NCBI GenBank assembly: GCA_963777605.1
Contig: CAVZRV010000007.1
Location: 480,001-544,000 of the forward strand
Direction of reading: 5' to 3'
Origin: an uncultured Acidobacteriota bacterium
GTDB lineage: Bacteria > Acidobacteriota > UBA6911 > RPQK01 > JAPXNP01
DNA: 64,000 nt
Positions 3,815-62,221 of this stretch are shown here, in pieces. The position numbers were made by a program, and so were the translations under genes. Below the pieces are notes generated by a model, which was not told the DNA's origin, did no database searches, and worked only from the letters and a program-made list of their open reading frames with translations. Positions within the stretch are counted from its first letter, which is position 1. Every line of letters begins with the position of its first letter.

Positions 3815-4810
3815 TTGCAGGATCCGGAAGTGGATTCGAAGAAGAGCGCGCCGATGAACTGGGGAAAGACCGCCGCAAATCTGGATTACTCCCTCGCACT
3901 GCCGATTCTGGGAAGGCTCCCAGTTTCCCTTGCCTACCGGCTGTCGGACATTCGTGCCGCGATTCGTAACCGGCTCCGGAAAGCCAGCCGCGAGCGCGCA
4001 GTCCAGAACCTGGCCCTGGCGTTTCCGGACCTGGAACCTCGCCAACACTGGGAGATGGCTCTCGACAGCCTCCGAATAGTCGCCCGGGACGAATTGGAAA
4101 CCTACTGGTATGACTGCTCCCTCTCCTTTCTCGAATCCCGCATCGACGAGAGCAATTTTGAGATCATCCGGGAGGTGGCCCGGAGAGGACGCGGCGTCCT
4201 CTTGTGTACCGGCCACATGGGGAATCCCGGAATCTTCCTCGCCATGGCCGGCCGTTCCGGTTTCCCCATCAACCTTGTCTTTCGTCCAATCGACGATTTC
4301 CCGCTGAATCCTCCTGGATGGCTGCGTTTTGGAAGAAACCGGGTGGAGAAGCTTCAGCAACTCTCCGAGCGGCCTGTCCTGTACGCCGGCAAGGTCAGCT
4401 ATTTTCACCTGCGCCGCCTTCTGCGCATGAACGAGTCGGTGATGATGGCAATCGACGTCGTCCCATCGTTGATTGGAAGGAGCGTGAGGGCAAGGTTGCT
4501 CGGACGAACCTGTTCATTCCCGGAAGGCATCCCGAGGCTCTGTCTGGACACTCGCCCGAGTGTTCTCTTCTGGAGCGTCCAGCGGATCCCGGAAGACAGG
4601 TATTCCTTTGTCTTCGAGGATCTAACGGAAGCGCTCGAGGCATTGCACACGGTCGAAGATATCGGGCAGGAACTGGTTTCATGCCTGGAACGGCGCATCC
4701 GGGTGGACCCGGCTGCCTGGATGCAGTGGGATGCGTTCGACCAGTTCTTTACCTCGGACGACCGAGCCGGGGAAGCTCTCCCAGATCCTCTGGGAAACAG
4801 CCCTCGTTAG
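3815..4810 (+). CDS. Lysophospholipid/lipid A-type acyltransferase (LPLAT family); start uncertain (alternative ATG 3854)
   Basis: NLALAFP, GRGVLLCTGHMGN and P-x-x-WMQW motifs of the LpxL-like family. Confidence 0.75.
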   Translation: MQDPEVDSKKSAPMNWGKTAANLDYSLALPILGRLPVSLAYRLSDIRAAIRNRLRKASRERAVQNLALAFPDLEPRQHWEMALDSLRIVARDELETYWYDCSLSFLESRIDESNFEIIREVARRGRGVLLCTGHMGNPGIFLAMAGRSGFPINLVFRPIDDFPLNPPGWLRFGRNRVEKLQQLSERPVLYAGKVSYFHLRRLLRMNESVMMAIDVVPSLIGRSVRARLLGRTCSFPEGIPRLCLDTRPSVLFWSVQRIPEDRYSFVFEDLTEALEALHTVEDIGQELVSCLERRIRVDPAAWMQWDAFDQFFTSDDRAGEALPDPLGNSPR

Positions 4811-5832
4811 AACCGGTTCCGCAGCTTCTCCATCAAAGTCAGGCCACGCGGGTTCATGCCCCGCAGAGGATTGTCAAAGCCCCGGCAGCCGTCCCGTTCC
4901 AGGACTTTCCCGGTTTCGTTCCAATAGAGACGTCGGTCTTGGCGCCACAGGCTTCCACGAACCGTCTTCCAGAATGAAGCTTTGCGAGTGGGGTTCGAAT
5001 CCGGCGTCGTGAACCGCACTGTCATGGCCCGCCGGGTCACCGCGGGACGCAAAATCCTTCGAGCCCCGTGAACCATCAGCGGGTGCCAGAGCACGGCCTC
5101 ACCTTTCTTCAGCAGGAGGTCCTCAGACTCCATGCCCGCCTCCTGGGCCCGGGCAAGGACAAACCGGTGCGCCGGGAGGTAGTCTTCCTCCGAATTGATT
5201 TGGAAGCGCCCCGCTTCGAACTCGTACAAGGGGAGCCGATGCGAACCCGGAACTAGGTAAGGGGGCCCGCTCTCGATCGTAATGTCCTCCAAAGGGACCC
5301 ATGCGGTGAGAAGATGGGCCGGCGGATTCACCTCGATATAGACAGCATCCCGACAGGCAGGCTCACTCCAGCCAAATTCCCCAAATGAAGACTCGAAGGC
5401 GATCGCCGGGTTATCGAAGATGAGTTCAACATATTCGAAGATCCGGCGATGAAGGTAGATCTGGAGAGCGGCCGGGGAATGGGAGTGCAGGTCCAGAAGC
5501 CGGGTTGGCGCCATGCGCTCCCAGCGTTCCCGACTGTCGGCCATCGACCTCGGTTGCTCCACGAAGACATAGGCGAGGTCAACCGGCTTGTCCCTCCAGA
5601 TTCGGTCCACATCCGACCGAATTCCTTCGCTGATCGTATCGATGTCGTCGAGTTGAATGGTCAGAAAGCCGTTCCGAACAAACTCGCACAACTTCTCGGC
5701 CTTCCCGGAAGAAAGCCGGCCGGCCGCAAACCGGGATTCGACCCGTTCCAGGGCATCCTCCTGATCCAGCCACAGACGACTTTCCAGCATCTTAGAATGG
5801 TCCAACATCAATCTCTGTGCCTTTCCAGCCAA
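4807..5832 (-). CDS. Phytanoyl-CoA dioxygenase (PhyH)-family protein; start possibly ATG 5808
   Basis: TAWVPLEDITIESGP, VPGSHRLP and KGEAVLWHPLMVHG motifs. Confidence 0.8.
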   Translation of the reverse strand: MAGKAQRLMLDHSKMLESRLWLDQEDALERVESRFAAGRLSSGKAEKLCEFVRNGFLTIQLDDIDTISEGIRSDVDRIWRDKPVDLAYVFVEQPRSMADSRERWERMAPTRLLDLHSHSPAALQIYLHRRIFEYVELIFDNPAIAFESSFGEFGWSEPACRDAVYIEVNPPAHLLTAWVPLEDITIESGPPYLVPGSHRLPLYEFEAGRFQINSEEDYLPAHRFVLARAQEAGMESEDLLLKKGEAVLWHPLMVHGARRILRPAVTRRAMTVRFTTPDSNPTRKASFWKTVRGSLWRQDRRLYWNETGKVLERDGCRGFDNPLRGMNPRGLTLMEKLRNRF

Positions 5833-11202: not shown

Positions 11203-11397
11203 ATGAATGACGGTGGCCCCAATAGTAAAAGGCCGAACTGCCGCCGCTGCCACAATTACTTCGTGACCTGGATCCCCGCCAAGCCCCATGGCTGCCGGGC
11301 ACTGAAATTCAGGTCGGCCCTGGAACCCAGCCTGGTGGTGTTCCAGTGTTCGGGAATGCCCTGCCGTCTTTTCCGGGCCAAGACACGCCCGGATTGA
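11203..11397 (+). CDS. Small Cys-rich conserved hypothetical protein
   Basis: 64 aa with CxxC...YFVTW...P.GC...F.S..PS..V...SG..C; a recurrent small family of unknown function. Confidence 0.65.
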   Translation: MNDGGPNSKRPNCRRCHNYFVTWIPAKPHGCRALKFRSALEPSLVVFQCSGMPCRLFRAKTRPD

Positions 11398-11407
11398 CTT
11401 TGGTCAT
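11394..11407 (+). promoter_or_regulatory. Putative FNR/DNR-type binding site upstream of the ywiC-like gene
   Basis: TTGAC-TTTG-GTCAT near-palindrome about 53 nt before ATG 11454, with a CAAACT -10-like hexamer at 11431. Confidence 0.45.
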
Positions 11408-11453
11408 TGCCGGACGGAGATGGTTCGCTTCAAACTGGGTTCCGTAAATCATC

Positions 11454-12260
11454 ATGAAGAAGAAACTCGGAATCCCAATTCCCGGTGAACATGGCGCGTG
11501 GGCGGTCCTGTATGCCTCTTTTGCCGTCGGGTGGGCTGCCTCGGACCCGGCTTTCGACGTCAAGATTATCCTCCTCCTGATCTCCGTCTCCGGCCTATTT
11601 CTCTCCCATGAGCCGCTGGTCAAGCTCCTCCGGGCAAGGAAGCATGGGGCCCCTTCAGAGAACCGCCTGCACTGGGTCAAATGGATGGGGATCTACCTTT
11701 CGGCAGCCCTCCTTGCCGGAGCGATCCTCCTCTTTGTCTATCAGCGTTGGATCTTGCTGGCCGGGGGACTACTGGCTGCAGTCCTCTTCTCGATTCACCT
11801 CCGCCTCGCTTTCCGACGCCGGGACCGAAACCTGGCGGGTGAGGTTCTCGGGATCATGGGGCTTACCCTGACCGCTCCGGCGGTGGCGATCACGGCTGTC
11901 GGGCATGTCGATAGCCGTGCCCTGCTGGTATGGCTCTCCTGTATCCTCTACTTCGCCAGTGGGATCTTCTACGTGAAGATGCGCGTCAGTCATCGGCTCA
12001 AGCCGGTCCACTTTTCCCTGCGGAAGCGGCAGTGCCTGGCTTACCACGCCGTTCTCCTGGTTCTGCTGATCGTGGCCTCGATCCTCCTTCAGCTTCCCGC
12101 CCTGATGCTGCTGGGCTTCGTCCCGATCATCACCCGGGCCGTCTGGCACGCGTTCCGCCCGGGAGGCACTCTGGACCTGAAGCAGATCGGCTATCGCGAA
12201 GTCCTTTACACGGTCATCTTTGCGATCTGCTCGGGCGTCGGCTGGATTGTGGCGGGATGA
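11454..12260 (+). CDS. YwiC-like integral membrane protein
   Basis: N-terminal P-x-EHGAWA, multiple TM helices, FYVK and C-terminal KQIGYRE motifs. Confidence 0.85.
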   Translation: MKKKLGIPIPGEHGAWAVLYASFAVGWAASDPAFDVKIILLLISVSGLFLSHEPLVKLLRARKHGAPSENRLHWVKWMGIYLSAALLAGAILLFVYQRWILLAGGLLAAVLFSIHLRLAFRRRDRNLAGEVLGIMGLTLTAPAVAITAVGHVDSRALLVWLSCILYFASGIFYVKMRVSHRLKPVHFSLRKRQCLAYHAVLLVLLIVASILLQLPALMLLGFVPIITRAVWHAFRPGGTLDLKQIGYREVLYTVIFAICSGVGWIVAG

Positions 12261-12303
12261 TCGTCTCCGGCACCGGGTTGCAGGCTGCACTCGACACCGC
12301 GGG

Positions 12304-12990
12304 TCACAGCCCTTCAACGTGGTCCCTCAACCCCTGCCGGTCGATCAGTTCCACGACCCGTCCGCGCTTGCGGATCCAGCCTTCTCGTTGAAGACGAGCG
12401 AACGACCTCGAAATAACTTCGCGCACACTGCCGATCAAGTCCGCGAGTTCCTGGTTGGTGTGCTCCAGGTGAAACGAAGTTCCGTCCCCGCTTCCGGTTC
12501 CCCGGTTCAAGAGGTACTCGGCAAGTCGCTGGCTCACGCCGCGCAGCGCCAGATCCTCGACCATGCCGGTGGCTTTTCGAAGCCGGCCGGCCAGGACCCT
12601 CAGAGCCTTCAGGGCCACCTGCGGATGCTGCAGGCAGAATGACTTCACCGCATCCTTGGGAATCAGGAGCAGGACGCTGTCCTCCACAGCGAAAACCGAA
12701 GAGGGGTAGGACCCGTCGTCGAAAACGGCTACTTCCGGGAAGGTCGATCCGGGAACGTCCTCGTGAATAATTTGTTCGCGACCGTCAGATCCGTGTCGGA
12801 TCGCTCGAGTGCGGCCTTCAACGACCACAAAGAGGCCCCTGCAGGCGTCTCCGGCGGAAAAGAGGAGATCGCCCGCGTTCAACTCAAACCTGCGCCCCTT
12901 CGACGCGAGCCGGAGCAGATCATCGAAGTCAACATCTGAAAAGAGCCGTGTCCGCGAGAGGGCGCCCGCCCAACTTTTATTCATCCCCAT
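12304..12990 (-). CDS. Crp/Fnr-family transcriptional regulator (no FNR Cys cluster; DNR/HcpR-like)
   Basis: cNMP-binding domain (GDLLFSAGD, F-x-EVAVF) and HTH TNQELADLIGSVREVISR. Confidence 0.92.
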   Translation of the reverse strand: MGMNKSWAGALSRTRLFSDVDFDDLLRLASKGRRFELNAGDLLFSAGDACRGLFVVVEGRTRAIRHGSDGREQIIHEDVPGSTFPEVAVFDDGSYPSSVFAVEDSVLLLIPKDAVKSFCLQHPQVALKALRVLAGRLRKATGMVEDLALRGVSQRLAEYLLNRGTGSGDGTSFHLEHTNQELADLIGSVREVISRSFARLQREGWIRKRGRVVELIDRQGLRDHVEGL

Positions 12991-50893: not shown

Positions 50894-50979
50894 GCCGGAG
50901 TGGCGGAATTGGCAGACGCACCGGACTCAAAATCCGGCGGGCAGCGATGCTCGTGGGGGTTCAAGTCCCCCCTCCGGCA
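50894..50979 (+). tRNA. tRNA-Leu(CAA)
   Basis: Acceptor stem GCCGGAG/CTCCGGC, anticodon arm CCGGA-CTCAAAA-TCCGG, long variable arm and T loop TTCAAGT. TTGGAT-18-TATACT promoter at 50854-50883. Confidence 0.96.
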
Positions 50980-51386: not shown

Positions 51387-51472
51387 CGAAAGTACTCTGG
51401 CTTTCTCGGCGCCAAAGGATTTGGCTGAATTGACGAGTGCCCACGGAATTGAAACTTGGGAGGGCGACCTTG

Positions 51473-51805
51473 ATGAAGTATCACCACCTCGGGATCCCGA
51501 CGACGACAGTACAATCCAGTGAAACCTACCTGGCTGAATTCAAGGTTTACTGTACGGATCATGATTGTAACCCGTTTGGGATCCAATGGATGCGGTTCGA
51601 GGCCGACAGTCCTCTACCCGAGCTCGTGAAGACAGTGCCTCATGTTGCATTCGAAGTAGACGACCTCGCATCGGCATTGGCGGGCCATGAAATCCTCATC
51701 GAGCCCAACAGCCCGTCCGAGGGAGTTCTGGTAGCGTTCATTGTCGAGGACGGGGCGCCGGTCGAATTCCTGCAGTTCCTCGATGATCCCACTTCCCAAG
51801 GTTAG
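51473..51805 (+). CDS. VOC/glyoxalase-like small protein
   Basis: GGGAGG RBS; YHHLGIP, PHVAFEVDDL and G..VAFI...GAPVEF motifs. Confidence 0.8.
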   Translation: MKYHHLGIPTTTVQSSETYLAEFKVYCTDHDCNPFGIQWMRFEADSPLPELVKTVPHVAFEVDDLASALAGHEILIEPNSPSEGVLVAFIVEDGAPVEFLQFLDDPTSQG

Positions 51806-51894: not shown

Positions 51895-52060
51895 TATGGA
51901 TGCAGAAAACTTGGACGGACCCCCGGTCCGGGTTTACAGGCCTGTACACTTTTGATCCCCCTACCCCCGGCCGAACCCGCCGTCTTCGAGGTCGGTCTTG
52001 CGGGAATGGCAGCTGCGACACAGGGGCTGCCAGTCTGGTAAAAACAGCTGGGGCAACCCG
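51895..52060 (-). pseudogene. C-terminal remnant of a phage terminase-associated HNH endonuclease followed by a cos-like tract
   Basis: Minus strand 52032-51961 translates WQPLCRSCHSRKTDLEDGGFGRG*. It runs into GGGGGTAGGGGGATCAAAAGTGT...ACCGGGGG...AAGTTTTCTGC, which resembles the sequence between the HNH and small-terminase genes of cos phages. Confidence 0.7.
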
Positions 52061-52067
52061 GCCAGGC

Positions 52068-52532
52068 TCAGGGTTTCGGTGATCGGGTCGGCATCGCGCT
52101 GACTCTGCGTCCTCTGCGGCTCAGCGGTTCAAGAGCTTTCACCGCAAGAGGCGCAAAGGGCGCCGAGGTCACGCAAAGGGACCCTGCGCGGTAACCTCGT
52201 CTTTGAAGCCACTCTTCCTTGGACTTGCGGCACTCGAATTCGGCCTCGGTGATGACATGAGCGGGGCGGGGAGCCCGGGTCCGGATCCAGGGCCGGTTCC
52301 CCCAGCCGCCGTAACTCTTTTTCCGCGGAGCGCCGTAGATCCGGACGCCGGTCAAATACTGCCGCTCCTCGGCAAAGACCGGCGTGTGAATGACCCGCAG
52401 AGTCAATGGATCGCGACTGACCAGGTCCACCTCGCCGTTGACAATCATCCGCAGGGCTTCCTTCTGACGCACGTGCTTCGTGCGCCCGGTCGGCAGGATC
52501 ACGGGAATCATTTCGCTTCGATCGGCAGACAT
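52068..52532 (-). CDS. Hypothetical (probably phage-derived) protein; 3' end runs through a repeat
   Basis: Co-oriented with the HNH, DUF1064 and DnaC-like relics; no recognised family. Confidence 0.45.
   Translation of the reverse strand: MSADRSEMIPVILPTGRTKHVRQKEALRMIVNGEVDLVSRDPLTLRVIHTPVFAEERQYLTGVRIYGAPRKKSYGGWGNRPWIRTRAPRPAHVITEAEFECRKSKEEWLQRRGYRAGSLCVTSAPFAPLAVKALEPLSRRGRRVSAMPTRSPKP
52103..52180. repeat. Imperfect inverted repeat built from 9-mer units (REP-like)
   Basis: CTCTGCGTC-CTCTGCGGC-TCAGCGGT opposite ACCGCAAGAG-GCGCAAAGG-GCGCCGAGG. Confidence 0.55.
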
Positions 52533-52710
52533 GGCTTCGCCCGTCACCCGCCTCAGGGGGACGTTGGCCTCTGTTAGTCTCCACATACAGGGCCGACAAT
52601 CTGAGGAGGATCCTGCGCCAGGACAGGAATATCTCGCACATTCGTAAACCCGCGCGTATTATCTACATGGAACATCCCTCACAGGAAGGTACTGTGAGCC
52701 AAGGAGGGAC

Positions 52711-53770
52711 TTGGCGATGAGGGCCGCGCAGGAGGCCGGGGGAGACCTCGGTGGTGAGTTTACGGGCAGGCACTTTTCTGCCGAGTCTGGCGGTGAAGCG
52801 AAGTCCAACTACCGGCCGAGACTGCTCACCCGCATGCGGGAGGCTCTGCGCTCGCGCCACTACAGCCGCCGCACCGAGCAAACCTACTGCAGCTGGGTCA
52901 AGCGGTTCATCTTCTTCCACAACGTGCGCCACCCGGCAGAAATGGGCGAGCCGGAAATCAACGCTTTCCTGACGTATCTTGCCGTGAAAGGGAAGGTCAG
53001 TGCCTCCACCCAGAACCAGGCGCTTTCGGCGCTGCTGTTTCTCTACCGTCATGTAGATCGGTCGCGAAGTCGGCGATCTGGGCGAACTCATTCGTGCCCG
53101 CAAGCCCAAACGCCTGCCGGTCGTCCTGACACGCGAAGAAGTTAAAGCCGTGCTGGCGAGCCTTTCGGGCGACAAATGGCTGATGGCCTCGTTAATGTAC
53201 GGAGCAGGATTACGCCTGATGGAATGTCTACGCCTGCGGGTTCAGGACCTTGACTTCTCCCGCAATGAGATTCTCGTCCGTGACGGAAAGGGAGCCAAAG
53301 ACCGCATCACGATGCTGCCCGAATCATTAAAGCAGCCGCTGAAAGAACACCTGAAGCAGGTCAAGGCGGTTCACGAGCAAGATCTGGCCGCCGGATGGGG
53401 ACGAGTGCAACTGCCGTTGGCTCTCGACCGCAAGTATCCCAACGCCCCGAAGGAATGGTGTTGGCAATGGCTCTTTCCCCAAGAGCACCGTTGGAAGAAC
53501 CCCAGGACCGGCGAAGAAGGGCGGCATCATGTGGACGAATCACTTGTTCAGAGGGCGGTTCGCAGGGCAGTCACAGAGGCAGGACTGGCGAAGCGGGCCA
53601 GTTGCCACACCTTCAGGCATTCCTTTGCCACCCATTTGCTTGAGAGTGGTTACGATATTCGGACAGTCCAAGAGCTTTTGGGCCACGCCGATGTCAAGAC
53701 CACGATGATCTATACGCACGTCCTCAACCGAGGGCCGTCAGGTGTGTGCAGCCCGTTGGACGGGCTCTGA
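52711..53770 (+). CDS. intI: Integron integrase, split by one apparent +1 insertion at about 53055
   Basis: [25 protein letters not shown] and (restored) [13 protein letters not shown]. Catalytic [24 protein letters not shown] and TTMIYTHV are present, plus the integron-specific insert [10 protein letters not shown]...WQWLFP...RHH. Confidence 0.93.
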
Positions 53771-53914
53771 AAAGGGATTCTTATGCCGATCCGCATAACA
53801 CCCCGGAATAAATGGCCGGTGAGCGAGAAGTCATTGATCCAAAGGAGTTTTATCTTACTTTCGAAAGGAACGACATAAAGCGTCTTATATGGGCAGAAGC
53901 GCAGTTGCTCGGCA

Positions 53915-53946
53915 TCTTATGCGGGTCCCTCTAATAATTGTTAGGC
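53915..53946 (+). other. Putative attI recombination site
   Basis: CCCTCTAATAATTG/TTAGGC: a GTTRRRY core at 53940-53946 with an upstream inverse box, similar to attI1 CCCTAAAACAAAGTTAGGC. It lies 22 nt before the first cassette ATG. Confidence 0.7.
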
Positions 53947-53968
53947 AAACAAGAGAGAGGCTACGAAA

Positions 53969-54229
53969 ATGGGCAAGAGGAAGGTGAATCTCCAGGAAGC
54001 GCGATCTATTGGTGACGGGCTGGGAATCGATTGGAGCAAAGTGGACCAGGAGGAGTTTCGCCGCGGATTAGAGGTCGAGTTCGAGCACGGTTTCCACGAT
54101 CCCGAAACGAACGTGACCAACGACGACCCAGTCCTCACAGGGAAAGTTGCATGGGCGCACCTGAAAGAGATCCGAGATTACTACACACGACTGGATCGCA
54201 TGGAAGCAGAGGCTGAGGCGTCCGCGTAG
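53969..54229 (+). CDS. DUF5661-like small protein (first gene cassette)
   Basis: LGIDW, F..GL.VE.EHG, TNVTNDD...TGK.A.AHL.E..DYYTRL motifs; GAGG RBS; no room for its own promoter. Confidence 0.82.
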   Translation: MGKRKVNLQEARSIGDGLGIDWSKVDQEEFRRGLEVEFEHGFHDPETNVTNDDPVLTGKVAWAHLKEIRDYYTRLDRMEAEAEASA

Positions 54230-54236
54230 CGGTGTT

Positions 54237-54336
54237 GACTAACCCATCCTTCAAGCTGACGGATCACCTGTCATGGCCCTTGCTTATGGAAACCCTTGGC
54301 AAGTCCCATGCCAGGTGCCCGGAGCCGAAGGGAGTC
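54237..54336 (+). other. Degenerate attC site
   Basis: R'' GACTAAC, L'' region CCTTCAAGC, and central palindrome ACCTGTCATGGCCCTTGC...GCAAGTCCCATGCCAGGT. The right arm GCCGAAGGGAGTC lacks the GTT of R'. Confidence 0.68.
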
Positions 54337-54388
54337 GCCCAGAAGCCTCGGATAGAGACTTTGGGGAGCACACCCAAGAGAGGACAAC

Positions 54389-56065
54389 ATGCAGTCAATC
54401 ACCAGTTGTGGCGCGGCGTGGCCAGCGCGCCGGTGTACCTCCCTGAGCCTGATCCTATTCGTGGCGATGGTCGTAGCCATCGGCGCACCGGCGAGTACCG
54501 CCGAACCGGCGCCCTCGCCCGCTTCCCTGCAGGCAGGCATTGACCCGCGGGTCGAGCTGTTCGCGATCATCTACCGGCTCGCGGGATACCTGGACCATGG
54601 CGAGGAGCACGCGACCTCATACTACGAGACGGAGGTGCAAAATCACTTCGGGCGCTACCGGGAGCATCCGGTCGTCGCGCTCGCAACCCGTCTCAAGGAG
54701 GATCGAAACGTAGACTACGGGGTCCAGTTGAGCCTCGCGGTGCACGTGGATGACGCCGCCAACCTGCAGCTGCGAGTGCCGCTCGATCCCTGGCCCGAGA
54801 CGCTGCACGAGCGCTGGACTCCGGAGCTCATTGACGAGTTCCTCGCCCAGGCCCGCGACTTCGCCACGCAAAGCGACTTCGGCGGGTTTGTCGAGAAGCA
54901 GGGGCCCTTCTATGCCGAGACGGTCGCCCGCGCCGAGCGTGCGCTCGAGGCCGGGGTCCACGTCGACTGGTTCGACAGCTTCTTTGGCCCCCAGACCGGT
55001 CGGGAGTTCCGCGTGTTCATCTCGCCTCTTGGCGGGCCGCACGGGTGGTATTCCTTCTGGCTCTCAACGGAGCAGGGGCTCGAGGCGATGAGCGTGATCG
55101 GCTGCGGGAGGTTGGACGACCAAGGCAAGCCGGTGTTCCACCAGGGGGCGCGCGGACTGAGCTGGGCCTCTGGGATCGTCCATGAGCTCTCACACTCCTA
55201 CGTGAACCCGATCTCAGATCCGTACCTCGATCAGCTCGAGGAGCCCGTCAATCGGATGAAGCCCTTCCTAGTGGCGTACTTCGCCAAAGCCTACGGGCAG
55301 GAACACCACTCCGCCCTCGTGAGGGAGTCGCTGGTGAGGGCAGCCGTCATCCGCTACCTCCATGAGCGCCGGGGATTCTTGGCGGGGCGTCGCGTCCTCG
55401 CCGGGGAGTTGAAGCAGGGCGCCTTCTGGATGCCGGAACTGCTGGAGACGCTGGAGCAGTACGAAAGCCAGCGCGACCGTTACCCCGATTTTCAGTCCTA
55501 CATGCCGGAGGTGGTCGAGTTCTTCGAGGTCTACAGCTCGCGGATCAGGGCAAAGGCGGCCGTGGCCAGGGCGTCACTTCCTCTTTATGTTTTGCTGCTC
55601 GTCGTCTACCTCATCGCAGTCTGGCTCCCGTCGCGCCGGTGGCCGACGCCGATGCCCGGGACGAGATGGGATCGGGTTGTCACATTCGGTCTGCTCTACG
55701 CCGTCCTGGGTCCCGCGTTTGAGTTCTTCGCGCTCGGCAACAGACCGGGGCTCCCCTGGCTGATAGCAGGAGCAATGCTCCTCCTGGCGGCCACGCTCAT
55801 AGGGCGTAGCGCCAGGTCAGAAGCAGGAGGGACCGCGCCCTCGGGCCCGCCGGACGAGGCTGTGCGTTCTTGGCCGGCGCGACCTCGGCATGTGCCCGCC
55901 TCTCTAGAGTTGAGCTATCTGCTCGTCCTCGTCGGCGCGCCGGTGATGCTGTCGGCTCGGCTTTCGTGGGTCTTCAGCGTCATCGCGGTAGTGGCGGTGC
56001 TGCTCCAGGCCAGGGCCAACAAAGCGCCTGCCATGGACTCTGATGTGGTTGTCGCGGGCCGATGA
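54389..56065 (+). CDS. DUF4932-like exported gluzincin with C-terminal TM helices
   Basis: Signal peptide; IDPRVELFAIIYRLAG, VHELSHSYVNP and ESLVRA motifs; about four C-terminal hydrophobic segments. Confidence 0.8.
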   Translation: MQSITSCGAAWPARRCTSLSLILFVAMVVAIGAPASTAEPAPSPASLQAGIDPRVELFAIIYRLAGYLDHGEEHATSYYETEVQNHFGRYREHPVVALATRLKEDRNVDYGVQLSLAVHVDDAANLQLRVPLDPWPETLHERWTPELIDEFLAQARDFATQSDFGGFVEKQGPFYAETVARAERALEAGVHVDWFDSFFGPQTGREFRVFISPLGGPHGWYSFWLSTEQGLEAMSVIGCGRLDDQGKPVFHQGARGLSWASGIVHELSHSYVNPISDPYLDQLEEPVNRMKPFLVAYFAKAYGQEHHSALVRESLVRAAVIRYLHERRGFLAGRRVLAGELKQGAFWMPELLETLEQYESQRDRYPDFQSYMPEVVEFFEVYSSRIRAKAAVARASLPLYVLLLVVYLIAVWLPSRRWPTPMPGTRWDRVVTFGLLYAVLGPAFEFFALGNRPGLPWLIAGAMLLLAATLIGRSARSEAGGTAPSGPPDEAVRSWPARPRHVPASLELSYLLVLVGAPVMLSARLSWVFSVIAVVAVLLQARANKAPAMDSDVVVAGR

Positions 56066-56198
56066 GACCGTTCTTAGAGCACTGTACAGAGCACATGAGG
56101 GTTGGGGTCGTGCAGGTAGGAGCCTCCCGAAGGTCGCGAGCCCCCTCGTGCAGCTCCGATTAGAATCGCCAGAGAGGTCAGGTTTTGTATTTTGCATG

Positions 56199-56589
56199 TC
56201 ACGACATAATTAAAGTATGAAATGTGTACTCCGGGAACTGGCTTCGGGCGATCTTGAACTTGAGCAGGCCGTCCTCCCAGATGTGGCCGCCCTTGACCTC
56301 GATGAACTCCTGCCTGCCGTCCGGGTAGAGCACCTTGAAGTCGGGCGTGTACCAGGTCCGGTCCGCGGCGCTCGGTCAGCCGAAACTTCTGGGCCTCGAA
56401 ACGCCAGCTGACGATCTCGCCGGCTTTGCGTTGCGCCTCGAGCCGGTCGGCGAAGGCCCGCTCCGTCTTGTTCATGCGTCCAGGTGACAGGCAAGCCATC
56501 GCCGTTCTGCTCGTCGGCAGCACTTCGGTGGGTGATAGTCGCCTTTCCTGCCAGGCCTTGAATTCGTCCATATTCCGGAATCTCAGCAT
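56199..56589 (-). pseudogene. Phage DUF1064-like PD-(D/E)xK nuclease, +1 frameshift at about 56370
   Basis: MNKTE.AFA..LE....GEI..WRFE..KFRL, then after restoring the frame TWYTPDFKVLYPDG..EFIEVKG..WED...KFK.A...FP. Confidence 0.78.
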
Positions 56590-56596
56590 TTTCTCT

Positions 56597-57180
56597 TCAC
56601 AACTCGATGACTTCGCACATGTCCTTGATCCGGCGCAGTGCCGCCGGCGGGAGGCATTCCATTTCCTGGAGCTCGGGCAAGCCGAAGTTTGACGTCAGCG
56701 ACAATCCGAGATCTCTCCGGTACAGGAGATCCACCAATTCGCAAACCATCTCTCGCCGGAAATCGGTCAGCCGGATCTTGTCGACATCGTCCCAACAGAG
56801 ATGCAGCGACGAGGATGTGGCTGCCTTGTAGAGGATGACGGAAGGCGACCCGAACTCCTCATCGTGCAGCTCGTCCATCAGGGCGTGACTGGACCGTAGC
56901 TCGGGGTCTCTGCAGCCGATCAGTTCCCGGAACTGGGCGATCAAGAGGTGCGTCTTGCCCGATCCGTAGCGCCCGTGAAGGAAAAAGCTGCCGGCTGGAT
57001 TGGCCCGGATCCTCGCCTGGAGCTGCCGCCTGAGTTCGTTCACCTGCCGGCAGGTCATCCAGACCCGGGACGGCCGCTTCGGCTCCAGTTCTCGGCGCTC
57101 GGTCCAGCTGCGTTTCCTTCTCAGGATCAAGCGGCCTTCGACTATGAAGGCGTCGAACTCGGTGCAGGTGATCGTCTCAC
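56597..57180 (-). pseudogene. DnaC/IstB-like phage replication ATPase, 5'-truncated
   Basis: FLHGRYGSGKTHL Walker A, CWDDVDK Walker B, LTSN and RRIKDMC. The frame is open only up to an in-frame TAA at about 57182. Confidence 0.75.
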
Positions 57181-57202
57181 CTTAGGGAATCGTGGAAAAT
57201 GC

Positions 57203-57230
57203 TTGACAATCAAGCGCGGCTCGATAGAAT
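57203..57230 (+). promoter_or_regulatory. Near-consensus sigma70 promoter
   Basis: TTGACA-16 nt-TAGAAT. Confidence 0.7.
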
Positions 57231-57236
57231 AGAAGT

Positions 57237-57330
57237 TGGCCCCAAGTCGTTCAAGGAATACTGGTAACGAGGCTGATCGAAAGGTTAGTTTAGGTTTAAT
57301 GTCAGCCTTTCTAAAGGTCACTTGGGGCCA
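57237..57330 (+). ncRNA. Unrecognised structured RNA (multi-branch, about 94 nt)
   Basis: Perfect 11-bp terminal stem TGGCCCCAAGT/ACTTGGGGCCA starting at the predicted TSS. Internal hairpins include AGGCTGATC-GAAA-GGTTAGTTT. Confidence 0.55.
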
Positions 57331-57746
57331 TTTCCATTCCTGAGCCAACCGTTTCGAATCCTTCCCGCAACGAGTCCCAGATCGGTATTGGCGATCCCGG
57401 TCGTCCTCCGGTGTGCGGGACAAGACCACGAGCTCCCAGGTTCAGCCGATATTCTGTTCGTCGATTCTAAGAGTCGTTCGTAGAGACTATGAACATCTCT
57501 CAAACGGGCGTCACCGTCAGAAACTCCAAAACGTCTATTATCGTCGGCGCCCCTGGAACGCGCCACCGCCAGATCACCTGCCGGGAGACGGGCAAGCCCG
57601 GGTTCCTCTACACCTCCTTCGCAATCCCATCGGCAGCGCTTTACAGCGGGTGTATTCTCGAGTCAATCGTTTCCATAGGCAATGCAGATTGAAGAGGGCT
57701 TCAGAATCGGGGTTTTCGAGTCCAGCCGAATATCGGAGTGTTGACA

Positions 57747-59754: not shown

Positions 59755-59809
59755 GTGTAACGGCGTGTCCCCGGTTCCCGGGAGTGACGGACCAGGCGGG
59801 CAGACTGAG

Positions 59810-59898
59810 CGATGAACTCTTGCCGCCCGTCCGGATAGAGCACCGTGAAGTCGGGTGTGTACCAGGTTCGATCCGCGGCGTACGTCAGCCGGAACTTT
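59810..59898 (-). pseudogene. Second internal fragment of the DUF1064-like nuclease
   Basis: Translates KFRLTYAADRTWYTPDFTVLYPDGRQEFI; paralogous to 56300-56389. Confidence 0.8.
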
Positions 59899-59931
59899 GG
59901 CGTTCCGGGGAACGGCTACGAGGTTACTTCA

Positions 59932-60206
59932 GGCCTTCTGTCAACTCCAGCCTTGACGGCAACACGAGGCGTGCCATCGACTCCCATGAGGGGAGGCGAA
60001 AACGAGGATTGGCGCTGAAACTCACGTCTTCGCGGCCGTGTCCAGGAAAGTCGAGAGGCAAAAGGTCAATCTGCAAGGCGTGCTTCCTCGGCCTCTTCAA
60101 CTCCAGCCTTGACGGCAACACGGGGCGTGCCATCGACTTCCACGAGGGCGAGGCGATAGACGAGGAGGCGTTGAAACTTCTCATTTGCGCGGCCCTGGCC
60201 CTGAAC
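59932..60206 (+). pseudogene. Two tandem C-terminal fragments of a DUF1801 (YdhG-like) gene
   Basis: NSSLDGNTRRAIDSHEG and GLFNSSLDGNTGRAIDFHEGEAIDEEALK.LI.AA.ALN. Direct repeat 59941-59992 / 60097-60148 with 3 mismatches. Confidence 0.72.
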
Positions 60207-60709
60207 AATGTCGAGAGGAATCTGACCTGGACCATGCAGCGATCGATAAGGTCACCATCGCGGCTTTTCGGACCCTTGCCATCAGCAACAACACGGAGCA
60301 GTTCATCATTCGTGCCTTGCGTACCGCCGGCGCGTTGAGCCTCTCTCTCGTGGCCGAGTTCGAGGGACGCGTGGTGGGCCACATCGCGTTCTCCCCTGTG
60401 TCGATCTCAGACGGTAGCCGGGACTGGTACGGACTCGGCCCGGTTTCGGTGTCACCGGAGTATCATCGACAGGGCATCGGCATAGCGTTGATCCGGGAAG
60501 GGCTATCCCGGCTCCGAAAGATGGGAGCCCGGGGGTGCTGCCTGGTGGGAGACCCGAACTACTACCGCCGATTTGGATTCCATCAAGTCGCCGGATTGGT
60601 GCACGAAGGTGTGCCGGAGGAGGTCTTCCTGGCCCTGACCCTGGACGGGGCTGAAGCGCAGGGAACGGTCCAGTTCCACGAGAGCTTCCGGGCGACCGGC
60701 GAAGAGTAG
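60185..60709 (+). CDS. GNAT N-acetyltransferase (YhbS-like); native start unclear or lost
   Basis: EQFII.ALR, LSLVAE..G.VVGHIAFSPV, LGPVSV.P...RQGIG and LVGDPNYYRRFGF motifs. Confidence 0.85.
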   Translation: MRGPGPEQCREESDLDHAAIDKVTIAAFRTLAISNNTEQFIIRALRTAGALSLSLVAEFEGRVVGHIAFSPVSISDGSRDWYGLGPVSVSPEYHRQGIGIALIREGLSRLRKMGARGCCLVGDPNYYRRFGFHQVAGLVHEGVPEEVFLALTLDGAEAQGTVQFHESFRATGEE

Positions 60710-60866: not shown

Positions 60867-61211
60867 ATGACTCCTGGACGCATTCTGCGCGCAGTCAAGA
60901 TCGTTCACACCATCGCCTGGGCTTTCTTTGCCGGGTGCATTCTGGCCATCCCCCTGTTCGTCGTTCGCGAAGAACTGTTCACCGCACTGGTCCTGATCGC
61001 GATCGTCCTGGGGGAGGTCTTCATCATTCTGGCCAACCGCTGGCGCTGCCCTCTCACCGACGTCGCCGCACGTTACACGGACAATCGGGCTGACAACTTC
61101 GACATCTACCTCCCCCTCTGGCTGGCTCGTTACAACAAGCAGGTCTTCGGAACCATCTTCGTCCTCGACATCCTCTACACGCTGGGAAAGTGGCAGAACT
61201 GGCTCGCATAG
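60867..61211 (+). CDS. Small conserved membrane protein
   Basis: GAGGA RBS, three hydrophobic segments, K.VHT..W, N.WRCPLT..A.RYT and NFDIYLP.WLA.YNK motifs. Confidence 0.8.
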   Translation: MTPGRILRAVKIVHTIAWAFFAGCILAIPLFVVREELFTALVLIAIVLGEVFIILANRWRCPLTDVAARYTDNRADNFDIYLPLWLARYNKQVFGTIFVLDILYTLGKWQNWLA

Positions 61212-61438: not shown

Positions 61439-62221
61439 TCAAACGGGGCGGATCACCGCTAACGGGAGATTGTCGATGAGGCGGACATTGCCAATGCGGA
61501 CAGCAGCCAGGCGGCGACCCCCGAACTCTTCCACGTAGTCGACACCAAACCCCGCCGCCTCAAGCTGAGCCTTGATCTCTTCGCAGGTTCCCGGCATTCC
61601 CAGAATCCGGGGAAATCGCGCGGCGATCTCTCGCTGTTCCGGGAACAGCCTCGAGTTTCGCGAACTCAGCGCCAGGCCATCCCGGTCCCGCACAATCGGG
61701 CAAGGAATGATTTCCGTGTCGATGAAAAGGTTCGCGCGCCATGTCTCTGACAAGGAGATATTGCTGGTAATCCTTCTCGCCGAAGTAGGCCCGGTCCGCC
61801 TTGACGAGGTTGAGCAGCTTCAGAACGATTGTGAGCACGCCTTCAAAATGTCCCGGCCGGTTACGGCCACAGAGCCGGCCGCTCAAATCGCTTTCAGTGA
61901 CCCGATAACGATATCCGTCCGGGTAAACCGATTCCGGGGAGGGAGCGAACAGGAAATCAACACCGGATCCCCGCGCTTTCTCCGGCGTCCGTCCTCGAAT
62001 GTCCTCGGGTATGAGGAGAGGTCGTTCGGATCATCGAACTGGACCGGATTCACGAAGATCGTCATGACAACCAGGTCATTCTCGTCCCGGCATCGTTTCA
62101 CCAGGGAGAGATGACCGGCGTGCAAACTGCCCATGGTCGGCACAAGCCCGACCGATTTGCCTTCGAAAACATCCGTTCCGCGGAGGCTCCGCCATTCATC
62201 CACCTCGGCAATGATTCGCAT
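61439..62221 (-). CDS. panC: Pantoate--beta-alanine ligase, split into three ORFs by apparent insertions
   Basis: [45 protein letters not shown] and VRLIDN motifs distributed over three frames. Confidence 0.92.

Follow-up and report, generated by a model that had tools for sequence, protein, structure and literature searches.

A reverse integron among broken phage-type genes in an Acidobacteriota genome

In a 64,000-nucleotide (nt) stretch of DNA from an uncultured Acidobacteriota bacterium (GenBank assembly GCA_963777605.1, contig CAVZRV010000007.1, positions 480,001 to 544,000; hereafter the window), the integron integrase gene intI is transcribed toward its own attI site, and our analyses support that the element is a member of the published inverted ('reverse') integrase group. 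An earlier description made from the sequence alone (the original prediction) had placed an integron of this architecture at positions 52711 to 56065, between two co-oriented phage genes, and had proposed that it was carried by, or inserted into, a prophage, as an unusual phage-linked route of integron mobility. The integron itself is borne out here by the position of attI, the orientation of attC sites in relatives, and an integrase tree. For its origin we favor, with a probability of roughly 0.6, a scenario in which a reverse integron that had spread laterally came to lie in the remnant of a decayed prophage within a tRNA-Leu island and is now decaying too; carriage of the integron by a phage is unsupported.

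The window IntI protein, which was read across a frameshift with an X at the break, scored 489 bits against the integron-integrase model TIGR02249 (cut-off 265). It carries the insertion specific to IntI, and by alignment all six catalytic R-K-H-R-H-Y residues are kept (R168, K193, H299, R302, H325, and Y334, corresponding to R146, K171, H277, R280, H303, and Y312 of IntI1), identifying it as an integron tyrosine recombinase. The single frameshift is caused by one extra base near 53055, which represents either decay or a consensus error, and intI may be a pseudogene. Because frameshifts are also found elsewhere at 51-62 kb, i.e. in the DUF1064 gene described below, in a kinase gene, and twice in panC, while the host open reading frames (ORFs) in 1-50.7 kb look largely whole, the break in intI may stem from the consensus and not from decay.

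The attI core GTTAGGC begins at 53940, exactly 170 nt past the intI stop codon, where the original prediction had seen an attI-like site. To place this site among relatives, we used a scan of GTDB genomes from which the best 80 of 498 confirmed loci were taken. A DNA profile built from 18 of these loci, picked by eye for a common motif past the stop codon and with the window left out, matched the window at 53769-53952 (87.9 bits, E=1.7e-26); the remaining matches in the window were two partial ones on the reverse strand within this region and a third at E=2.9. The profile also matched 5 of 62 loci outside the training set and none of the 12 canonical loci, and in a pattern search G|TT was found 161-179 nt past the intI stop in 16 of 37 loci. 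L013, the closest relative among the 80, shares 79% DNA identity with the window through intI and attI, and this identity ends at the G|TT crossover. A true attI upstream of intI, which would have contradicted an inverted architecture, was rejected, because the profile has no match upstream of intI in the window and the upstream region is not conserved across relatives. Based on the profile match, the pattern in relatives, the end of the identity to L013, and the unconserved upstream region, we conclude that the attI assignment is well beyond chance.

Several further features of attI were recorded. The first of its three TTAT boxes is a near-palindrome that lies ~10 nt past the intI stop and ~150 nt from the crossover in the window and in L001-L035, and the three boxes are possible candidates for extra integrase-binding sites. 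A search for a cassette promoter (Pc) gave one 9/12 sigma-70 match at 53909-53938, with three matches found vs. 1.3 +/- 1.2 in shuffles. Second copies of attI occur within the arrays of L008 (~3.2 kb past intI) and L015 (~2.9 kb), each preceded by the last intI codons. R'-like words at 52564 and 52574 prompted the idea of a self-excised intI-attI circle leaving a GTTRRRY scar, which was unsupported: GTTRRRY was not enriched upstream of intI in 38 relatives (8 observed vs. 10.1 in shuffles).

In a quick 84-row maximum-likelihood tree (rooted at the midpoint; L031 omitted as a split match; support from the Shimodaira-Hasegawa-like approximate likelihood-ratio test, SH-aLRT, only and no bootstrap), the window IntI fell within a 42-row clade that includes the Treponemataceae rows (SH-aLRT 99). 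An attC model, for which 38 sites picked heuristically served as training set, produced 151 matches in 39 of the 80 loci. Among the 40 representative rows of an orientation table, 27 loci have same-strand attCs downstream of intI (L055 is doubtful, with attCs only at 7 kb) and 12 have the canonical arrangement with opposite-strand attCs upstream of intI; among the clade loci with attC calls, 21 are inverted and none is canonical. Five inverted loci of the tree lie outside the 42-row clade, which fits the paraphyly of the inverted integrase group noted in the available part of PMC4889954. In the window element, intI and attC share a strand and attI lies 3' of intI, with none 5', and it is this arrangement, together with the tree, that supports its membership in the inverted group. 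In one relative, L048, same-strand attCs lie on both sides of intI, placing the integrase inside the array.

The nearest relatives among the 80 loci are 76-86% identical and labeled Planctomycetota, Nitrospirota, and Desulfobacteraceae. Across the 41 clade loci there are 18 phylum labels, all of them labels of metagenome-assembled genomes of which some are possibly mis-binned. This variety of labels argues for lateral spread of the intI-attI platform. The neighbors of the platform vary as well: of 131 nearest upstream ORFs (up to three for each of 45 loci), those assigned by Pfam are mostly different housekeeping genes, ~57 are without a family, and none belongs to a virion or packaging family. 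Mobile-type matches among them comprise a RepB primase (L002), an excisionase-like helix-turn-helix (HTH) gene (L013), and an integrase fragment (L022). Further ORFs (150 of the 228 listed, from 17 loci) added one match each to head/packaging, excisionase, and transposase families, the first being a portal-like fragment 5.5 kb upstream in L004. An excisionase-like HTH gene and intI are 85% identical in DNA between L004 (9643-10983, Omnitrophota) and L013 (863-2215, Planctomycetota), a similarity that suggests a shared mobile unit. In L001, a reverse transcriptase-TIR fusion at 11349-12875 near the array start is, from its inferred function, likely an anti-phage gene.

Both ORFs downstream of attI lie on the strand of intI, in agreement with the same-strand cassettes of the original prediction, but only the DUF5661 ORF is followed by an attC, and the R' of this site is degenerate. 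The site starts 7 nt past the DUF5661 stop; its left arm and stem are intact, R' reads GCC instead of GTT, and R'' (GACTAAC) is complementary at 6/7 positions to the 5' core GTTAGGC, so that this ORF has a matching attC. The bottom strand folds with z=-3.1; an nhmmer search with a profile of 16 attCs taken from relatives recovered the site at E=9e-5 over the window, and a covariance model did so at 17.6 bits, with E-values, which are rough for this model, of 0.06 for the window and 0.01 for the island. The heuristic attC finder missed this real but degenerate site. A recombinogenic attC requires the conserved GTT. With GCC at R', the attC of cassette 1 is therefore probably no longer recombinogenic, and cassette 1 is probably frozen. 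For the DUF4932 ORF, neither the sequence profile nor the covariance model detected an attC, although a decayed site is conceivable; a candidate spotted by eye at 56015-56070 past this gene was not supported (the best score being 5.5 bits, E=6.9). Because the DUF4932 ORF lacks a detectable attC, one cassette is demonstrated and not two. AttC-like sites suggested by the heuristic finder at 59755 and 58002 were taken as chance, as both models miss them and the former overlaps DUF1064 coding sequence. Lone small ORFs of cassette-like size lie at 51437-51805 (unknown, 122 amino acids), 60231-60709 (GNAT), and 60867-61211 (a 114-amino-acid membrane protein), and neither model detected an attC at any of them. 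The DUF5661 protein had no match in plasmids, and the phage and cassette proteins of the window had no tblastn match in the 80 loci.

On established integron biology, recombination by IntI would take place between attI, at the G|TT at 53940, and an attC in the form of its folded bottom strand, a reaction resolved by replication (PMC8352920, available in part). Because attI lies downstream of intI, cassettes would be added in the direction of intI. While the mechanism is that of integrons in general, the site and the orientation are those demonstrated here, and the integron captured at least one cassette, i.e. that of DUF5661. The features of the integron and its surroundings are collected in Table 1.

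Table 1 Features of the integron and of the flanking island in the window
Feature	Position	Strand	Evidence or remark
Integron integrase gene intI, inverted clade	52711..53770	+	TIGR02249, tree, catalytic residues; start codon uncertain
attI region, three conserved TTAT boxes, crossover G|TT at 53940/53941	53771..53946	+	Profile, alignment of relatives
Cassette 1 ORF, DUF5661, 86 amino acids	53969..54229	+	PF18905 E=1e-18
attC of cassette 1, long type	54237..54340	+	Fold, nhmmer, covariance model
DUF4932 membrane/exported protein, 558 amino acids, GC 0.65	54389..56065	+	PF16286 E=3e-51
tRNA-Leu(CAA), probable left island edge	50894..50979	+	No duplicate of 3' end in window except tRNA-Met
HNH endonuclease C-terminal fragment, phage type of cos-phage genome ends	51961..52128	-	phrog_144 E=9.7e-5
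Conserved hypothetical gene, ~118 amino acids	52185..52545	-	Nine relatives, the best at 58% across residues 23-134
Junction DNA, non-coding, foreign to DUF1064 gene	56066..56219	.	Homology to full-length relatives stops at 56220
DUF1064/phage Holliday-junction-resolvase-like gene, frameshifted, 3'-truncated	56220..56589	-	phrog_190 E=5e-18
DnaC-like helicase loader, probably 5'-truncated	56597..57181	-	phrog_50 E=1e-7
Second DUF1064 fragment, internal	59810..59897	-	87-89% identical to first copy

The DnaC-like, DUF1064/resolvase, and HNH genes lie on one strand in the order of a temperate phage. In tblastn, the HNH fragment matched the ends of the phi105 and rho14 genomes, and the DUF1064 gene matches 62 phage records. 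Close DUF1064 homologues (77-82% identity) run ~15 residues past the point at 56220 where the window diverges, indicating that the gene was cut at the junction; the DnaC-like gene, 7 nt away, is probably truncated at its 5' end, as no longer open frame is present. The conserved hypothetical gene that adjoins intI on the left is apparently whole, but without a stop codon of its own, and a word search gave no candidate name for it, nor did the Atlas provide anything usable. Thus, the surroundings described in the original prediction stood in part: a phage derivation is reasonable for DnaC, DUF1064, and the HNH fragment further to the left, whereas DUF1064 is truncated and the phage origin of the adjoining left gene, which has no phage family, was not borne out. 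Likewise, insertion into a prophage is plausible and carriage by one is without positive support.

Other observations concern the flanks as such. A short palindromic repeat-like stretch at 52110-52185, which we take to resemble repetitive extragenic palindromic (REP)-type repeats, separates the hypothetical gene from the HNH fragment. Where the DnaC-like gene breaks off, 57203-57335 contains a strong sigma-70-like promoter (11/12) and an inverted repeat (z=-2.4) without an Rfam match; at 50-64 kb, Rfam returned tRNA only, plus a weak and probably chance RsmY match (E=0.25, below the gathering score). At 59810-60200, a 52-nt stretch of a DUF1801-like gene, present as a duplicate, comes after the second DUF1064 fragment. 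The panC gene (61439-62221) is spread over three frames with consecutive Pfam positions, pointing to local sequence errors or decay.

The origin that we favor combines these elements as follows. The intI-attI platform moves laterally between phyla and settles beside unrelated genes, as observed in relatives. Here, a prophage that already resided in the tRNA-Leu island would have received it, by entry or by recombination, in its replication-to-packaging stretch; the entry event or a later deletion would have cut the DUF1064 gene; and both phage and integron would have decayed later, leaving an attC without GTT and an intI that is possibly a pseudogene. Some observations weigh against this scenario. 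The hypothetical gene left of intI matches no PHROG, Pfam, or NCBIfam family, and no empty site was found in which DUF1064 is contiguous with this gene. The insertion bears neither a target duplication nor an inverted repeat or transposase, which leaves the mechanism of entry unexplained: no transposase family was detected in a Pfam scan of the window ORFs, and the junction regions have no direct word of at least 7 nt in common and a single inverted one of 7 nt, the same as random pairs. The portal-like fragment in L004 and the RepB primase in the sister row L002 indicate that some relatives lie near mobile DNA. Finally, the DUF1064 truncation could be later than a phage-borne arrival.

The relic amounts to ~1.5 kb of mostly broken genes in a patchwork between tRNA-Leu and panC, and the same 10 kb hold the second DUF1064 fragment, a PAS kinase, the duplicated DUF1801 piece, and a GNAT gene. 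Moreover, several of the closest homologues of the relic genes (P0006, P0008, P0013, and P0015) consist of deleted or fused pieces, suggesting that the relic family is commonly decayed. This mixture, and a left gene without a phage family, would also arise if the flanks were unrelated scraps joined by serial insertion and deletion, with the integron between two remnants and not inside one phage. We consider this unlikely, because every phage-type piece lies on one strand in the expected order, and because DnaC and DUF1064 are not only 7 nt apart but also linked in the P0008 fusion.

Less probable still is that the integron was the cargo of a temperate phage, situated between the replication and packaging modules, and reached tRNA-Leu with this phage, which then decayed around it. 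Extra genes commonly sit in the late-early region of phages, and it is in this region that the integron points against the phage genes, with co-oriented genes in phage order on both flanks. The spread of the clade across phyla needs some vehicle, and phage-borne integrons are known (PMC9892861, available in part). Against this stand the cut in DUF1064 at the junction, the rarity of phage genes beside relatives, and the phage records themselves: 50,697 GenBank phage records yielded no IntI belonging to this clade (IMG/VR and metagenome contigs were not searched); nine of them matched IntI at E<=1e-30, all at <60% identity, and the three phage IntI-like proteins placed in the tree fell outside the clade. 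One phage, Rctr41k (L083, KX853513), encodes at 4680-5678 an IntI-like recombinase with 44% identity and a long branch that is annotated as xerD. Among plasmids, the best 5000 records matching IntI were likewise all <60% identical. In the relic, no virion, terminase/packaging, lysis, or phage integrase gene was detected among the window ORFs (Pfam) or the island ORFs (PHROGs), and the 64-kb window contains no attL/attR repeat of the tRNA-Leu 3' end. On these grounds, the unusual phage-linked mobility route of the original prediction is unsupported, and we are more doubtful again that the compact inverted-clade intI-attI module, which occurs in at least 18 phyla and lacks a transposase, hitch-hikes on temperate phages and that the locus is the fossil trace of one such delivery. 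The least probable explanation is an assembly artefact where the contig has poor support, for although the clustering of frameshifts in 51-62 kb, which leaves even panC in three pieces next to largely whole host ORFs, suggests weak or mixed read support, the window ORF lies on a 1,151,913-bp contig suggestive of a long-read assembly, the internal anatomy of intI, attI, ORF, and attC is coherent, and neither junction holds a repeat long enough to mislead an assembler.

If phages were nevertheless the vehicle, this would bear on how chromosomal integrons become mobile, and hitch-hiking would give environmental integrons a phage-mediated way to spread across phyla. A useful by-product of the analysis is the relatives set, with its conserved attI of ~185 nt, three TTAT boxes, and a platform that changes neighbors in almost every genome; it makes testable what constitutes the functional attI of the inverted group and what moves the platform between phyla.

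The locus is one more reverse integron and one more case of an integron in a cryptic prophage, both of which are known kinds. According to the parts of these sources that were available, intI transcribed toward attI was described in Treponema (PMC3607928), the inverted integron-integrase group was named in PMC4889954, and it is treated as a known type in PMC4909258, PMC8352920, bioRxiv 10.1101/2022.02.06.479319, and PMC13323075; cassette insertion outside att sites is described in bioRxiv 10.1101/2022.09.11.507474. PMC9892861, also available in part, describes temperate phages, a cryptic prophage among them, that hold three complete integrons and one In0, so that integrons in functional and cryptic prophages are already on record; its authors leave open whether the association preceded or followed the prophage becoming cryptic. 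In the literature searched, mostly non-subscription papers with supplements excluded, we found no report of an inverted-clade integron in a prophage.

With the reverse integrons of Treponema denticola and its relatives, the window element shares an intI directed toward attI, same-strand cassettes, an attI core ~160-215 nt past intI, and the IntI clade; unlike them, it has one cassette with a degenerate attC instead of a long array, a possible frameshift in intI, and phage-type flanks. As with the integron of the Shewanella cryptic prophage M16-3 and the integron pieces of Vibrio anguillarum and P1 phages in the available part of PMC9892861, the platform lies physically in prophage-derived DNA; however, the IntIs of those cases fall outside the inverted clade (in our tree, the Shewanella and Vibrio proteins and a class 1 reference), and structural genes are retained in their phages, whereas here only ~1.5 kb of broken phage-type DNA is left. 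For the flanks, a replication gene and a DUF1064 homologue precede small genes and a genome-end nuclease in Burkholderia phage Bcep176, but with six genes between DUF1064 and the nuclease compared to one here, where three of four pieces are fragments. In Caulobacter phage DMCA, DUF1064 lies in the early region in an order that differs from the window, and Bacillus phi105 has an HNH-type nuclease match at the genome end in its replication-to-cos region.

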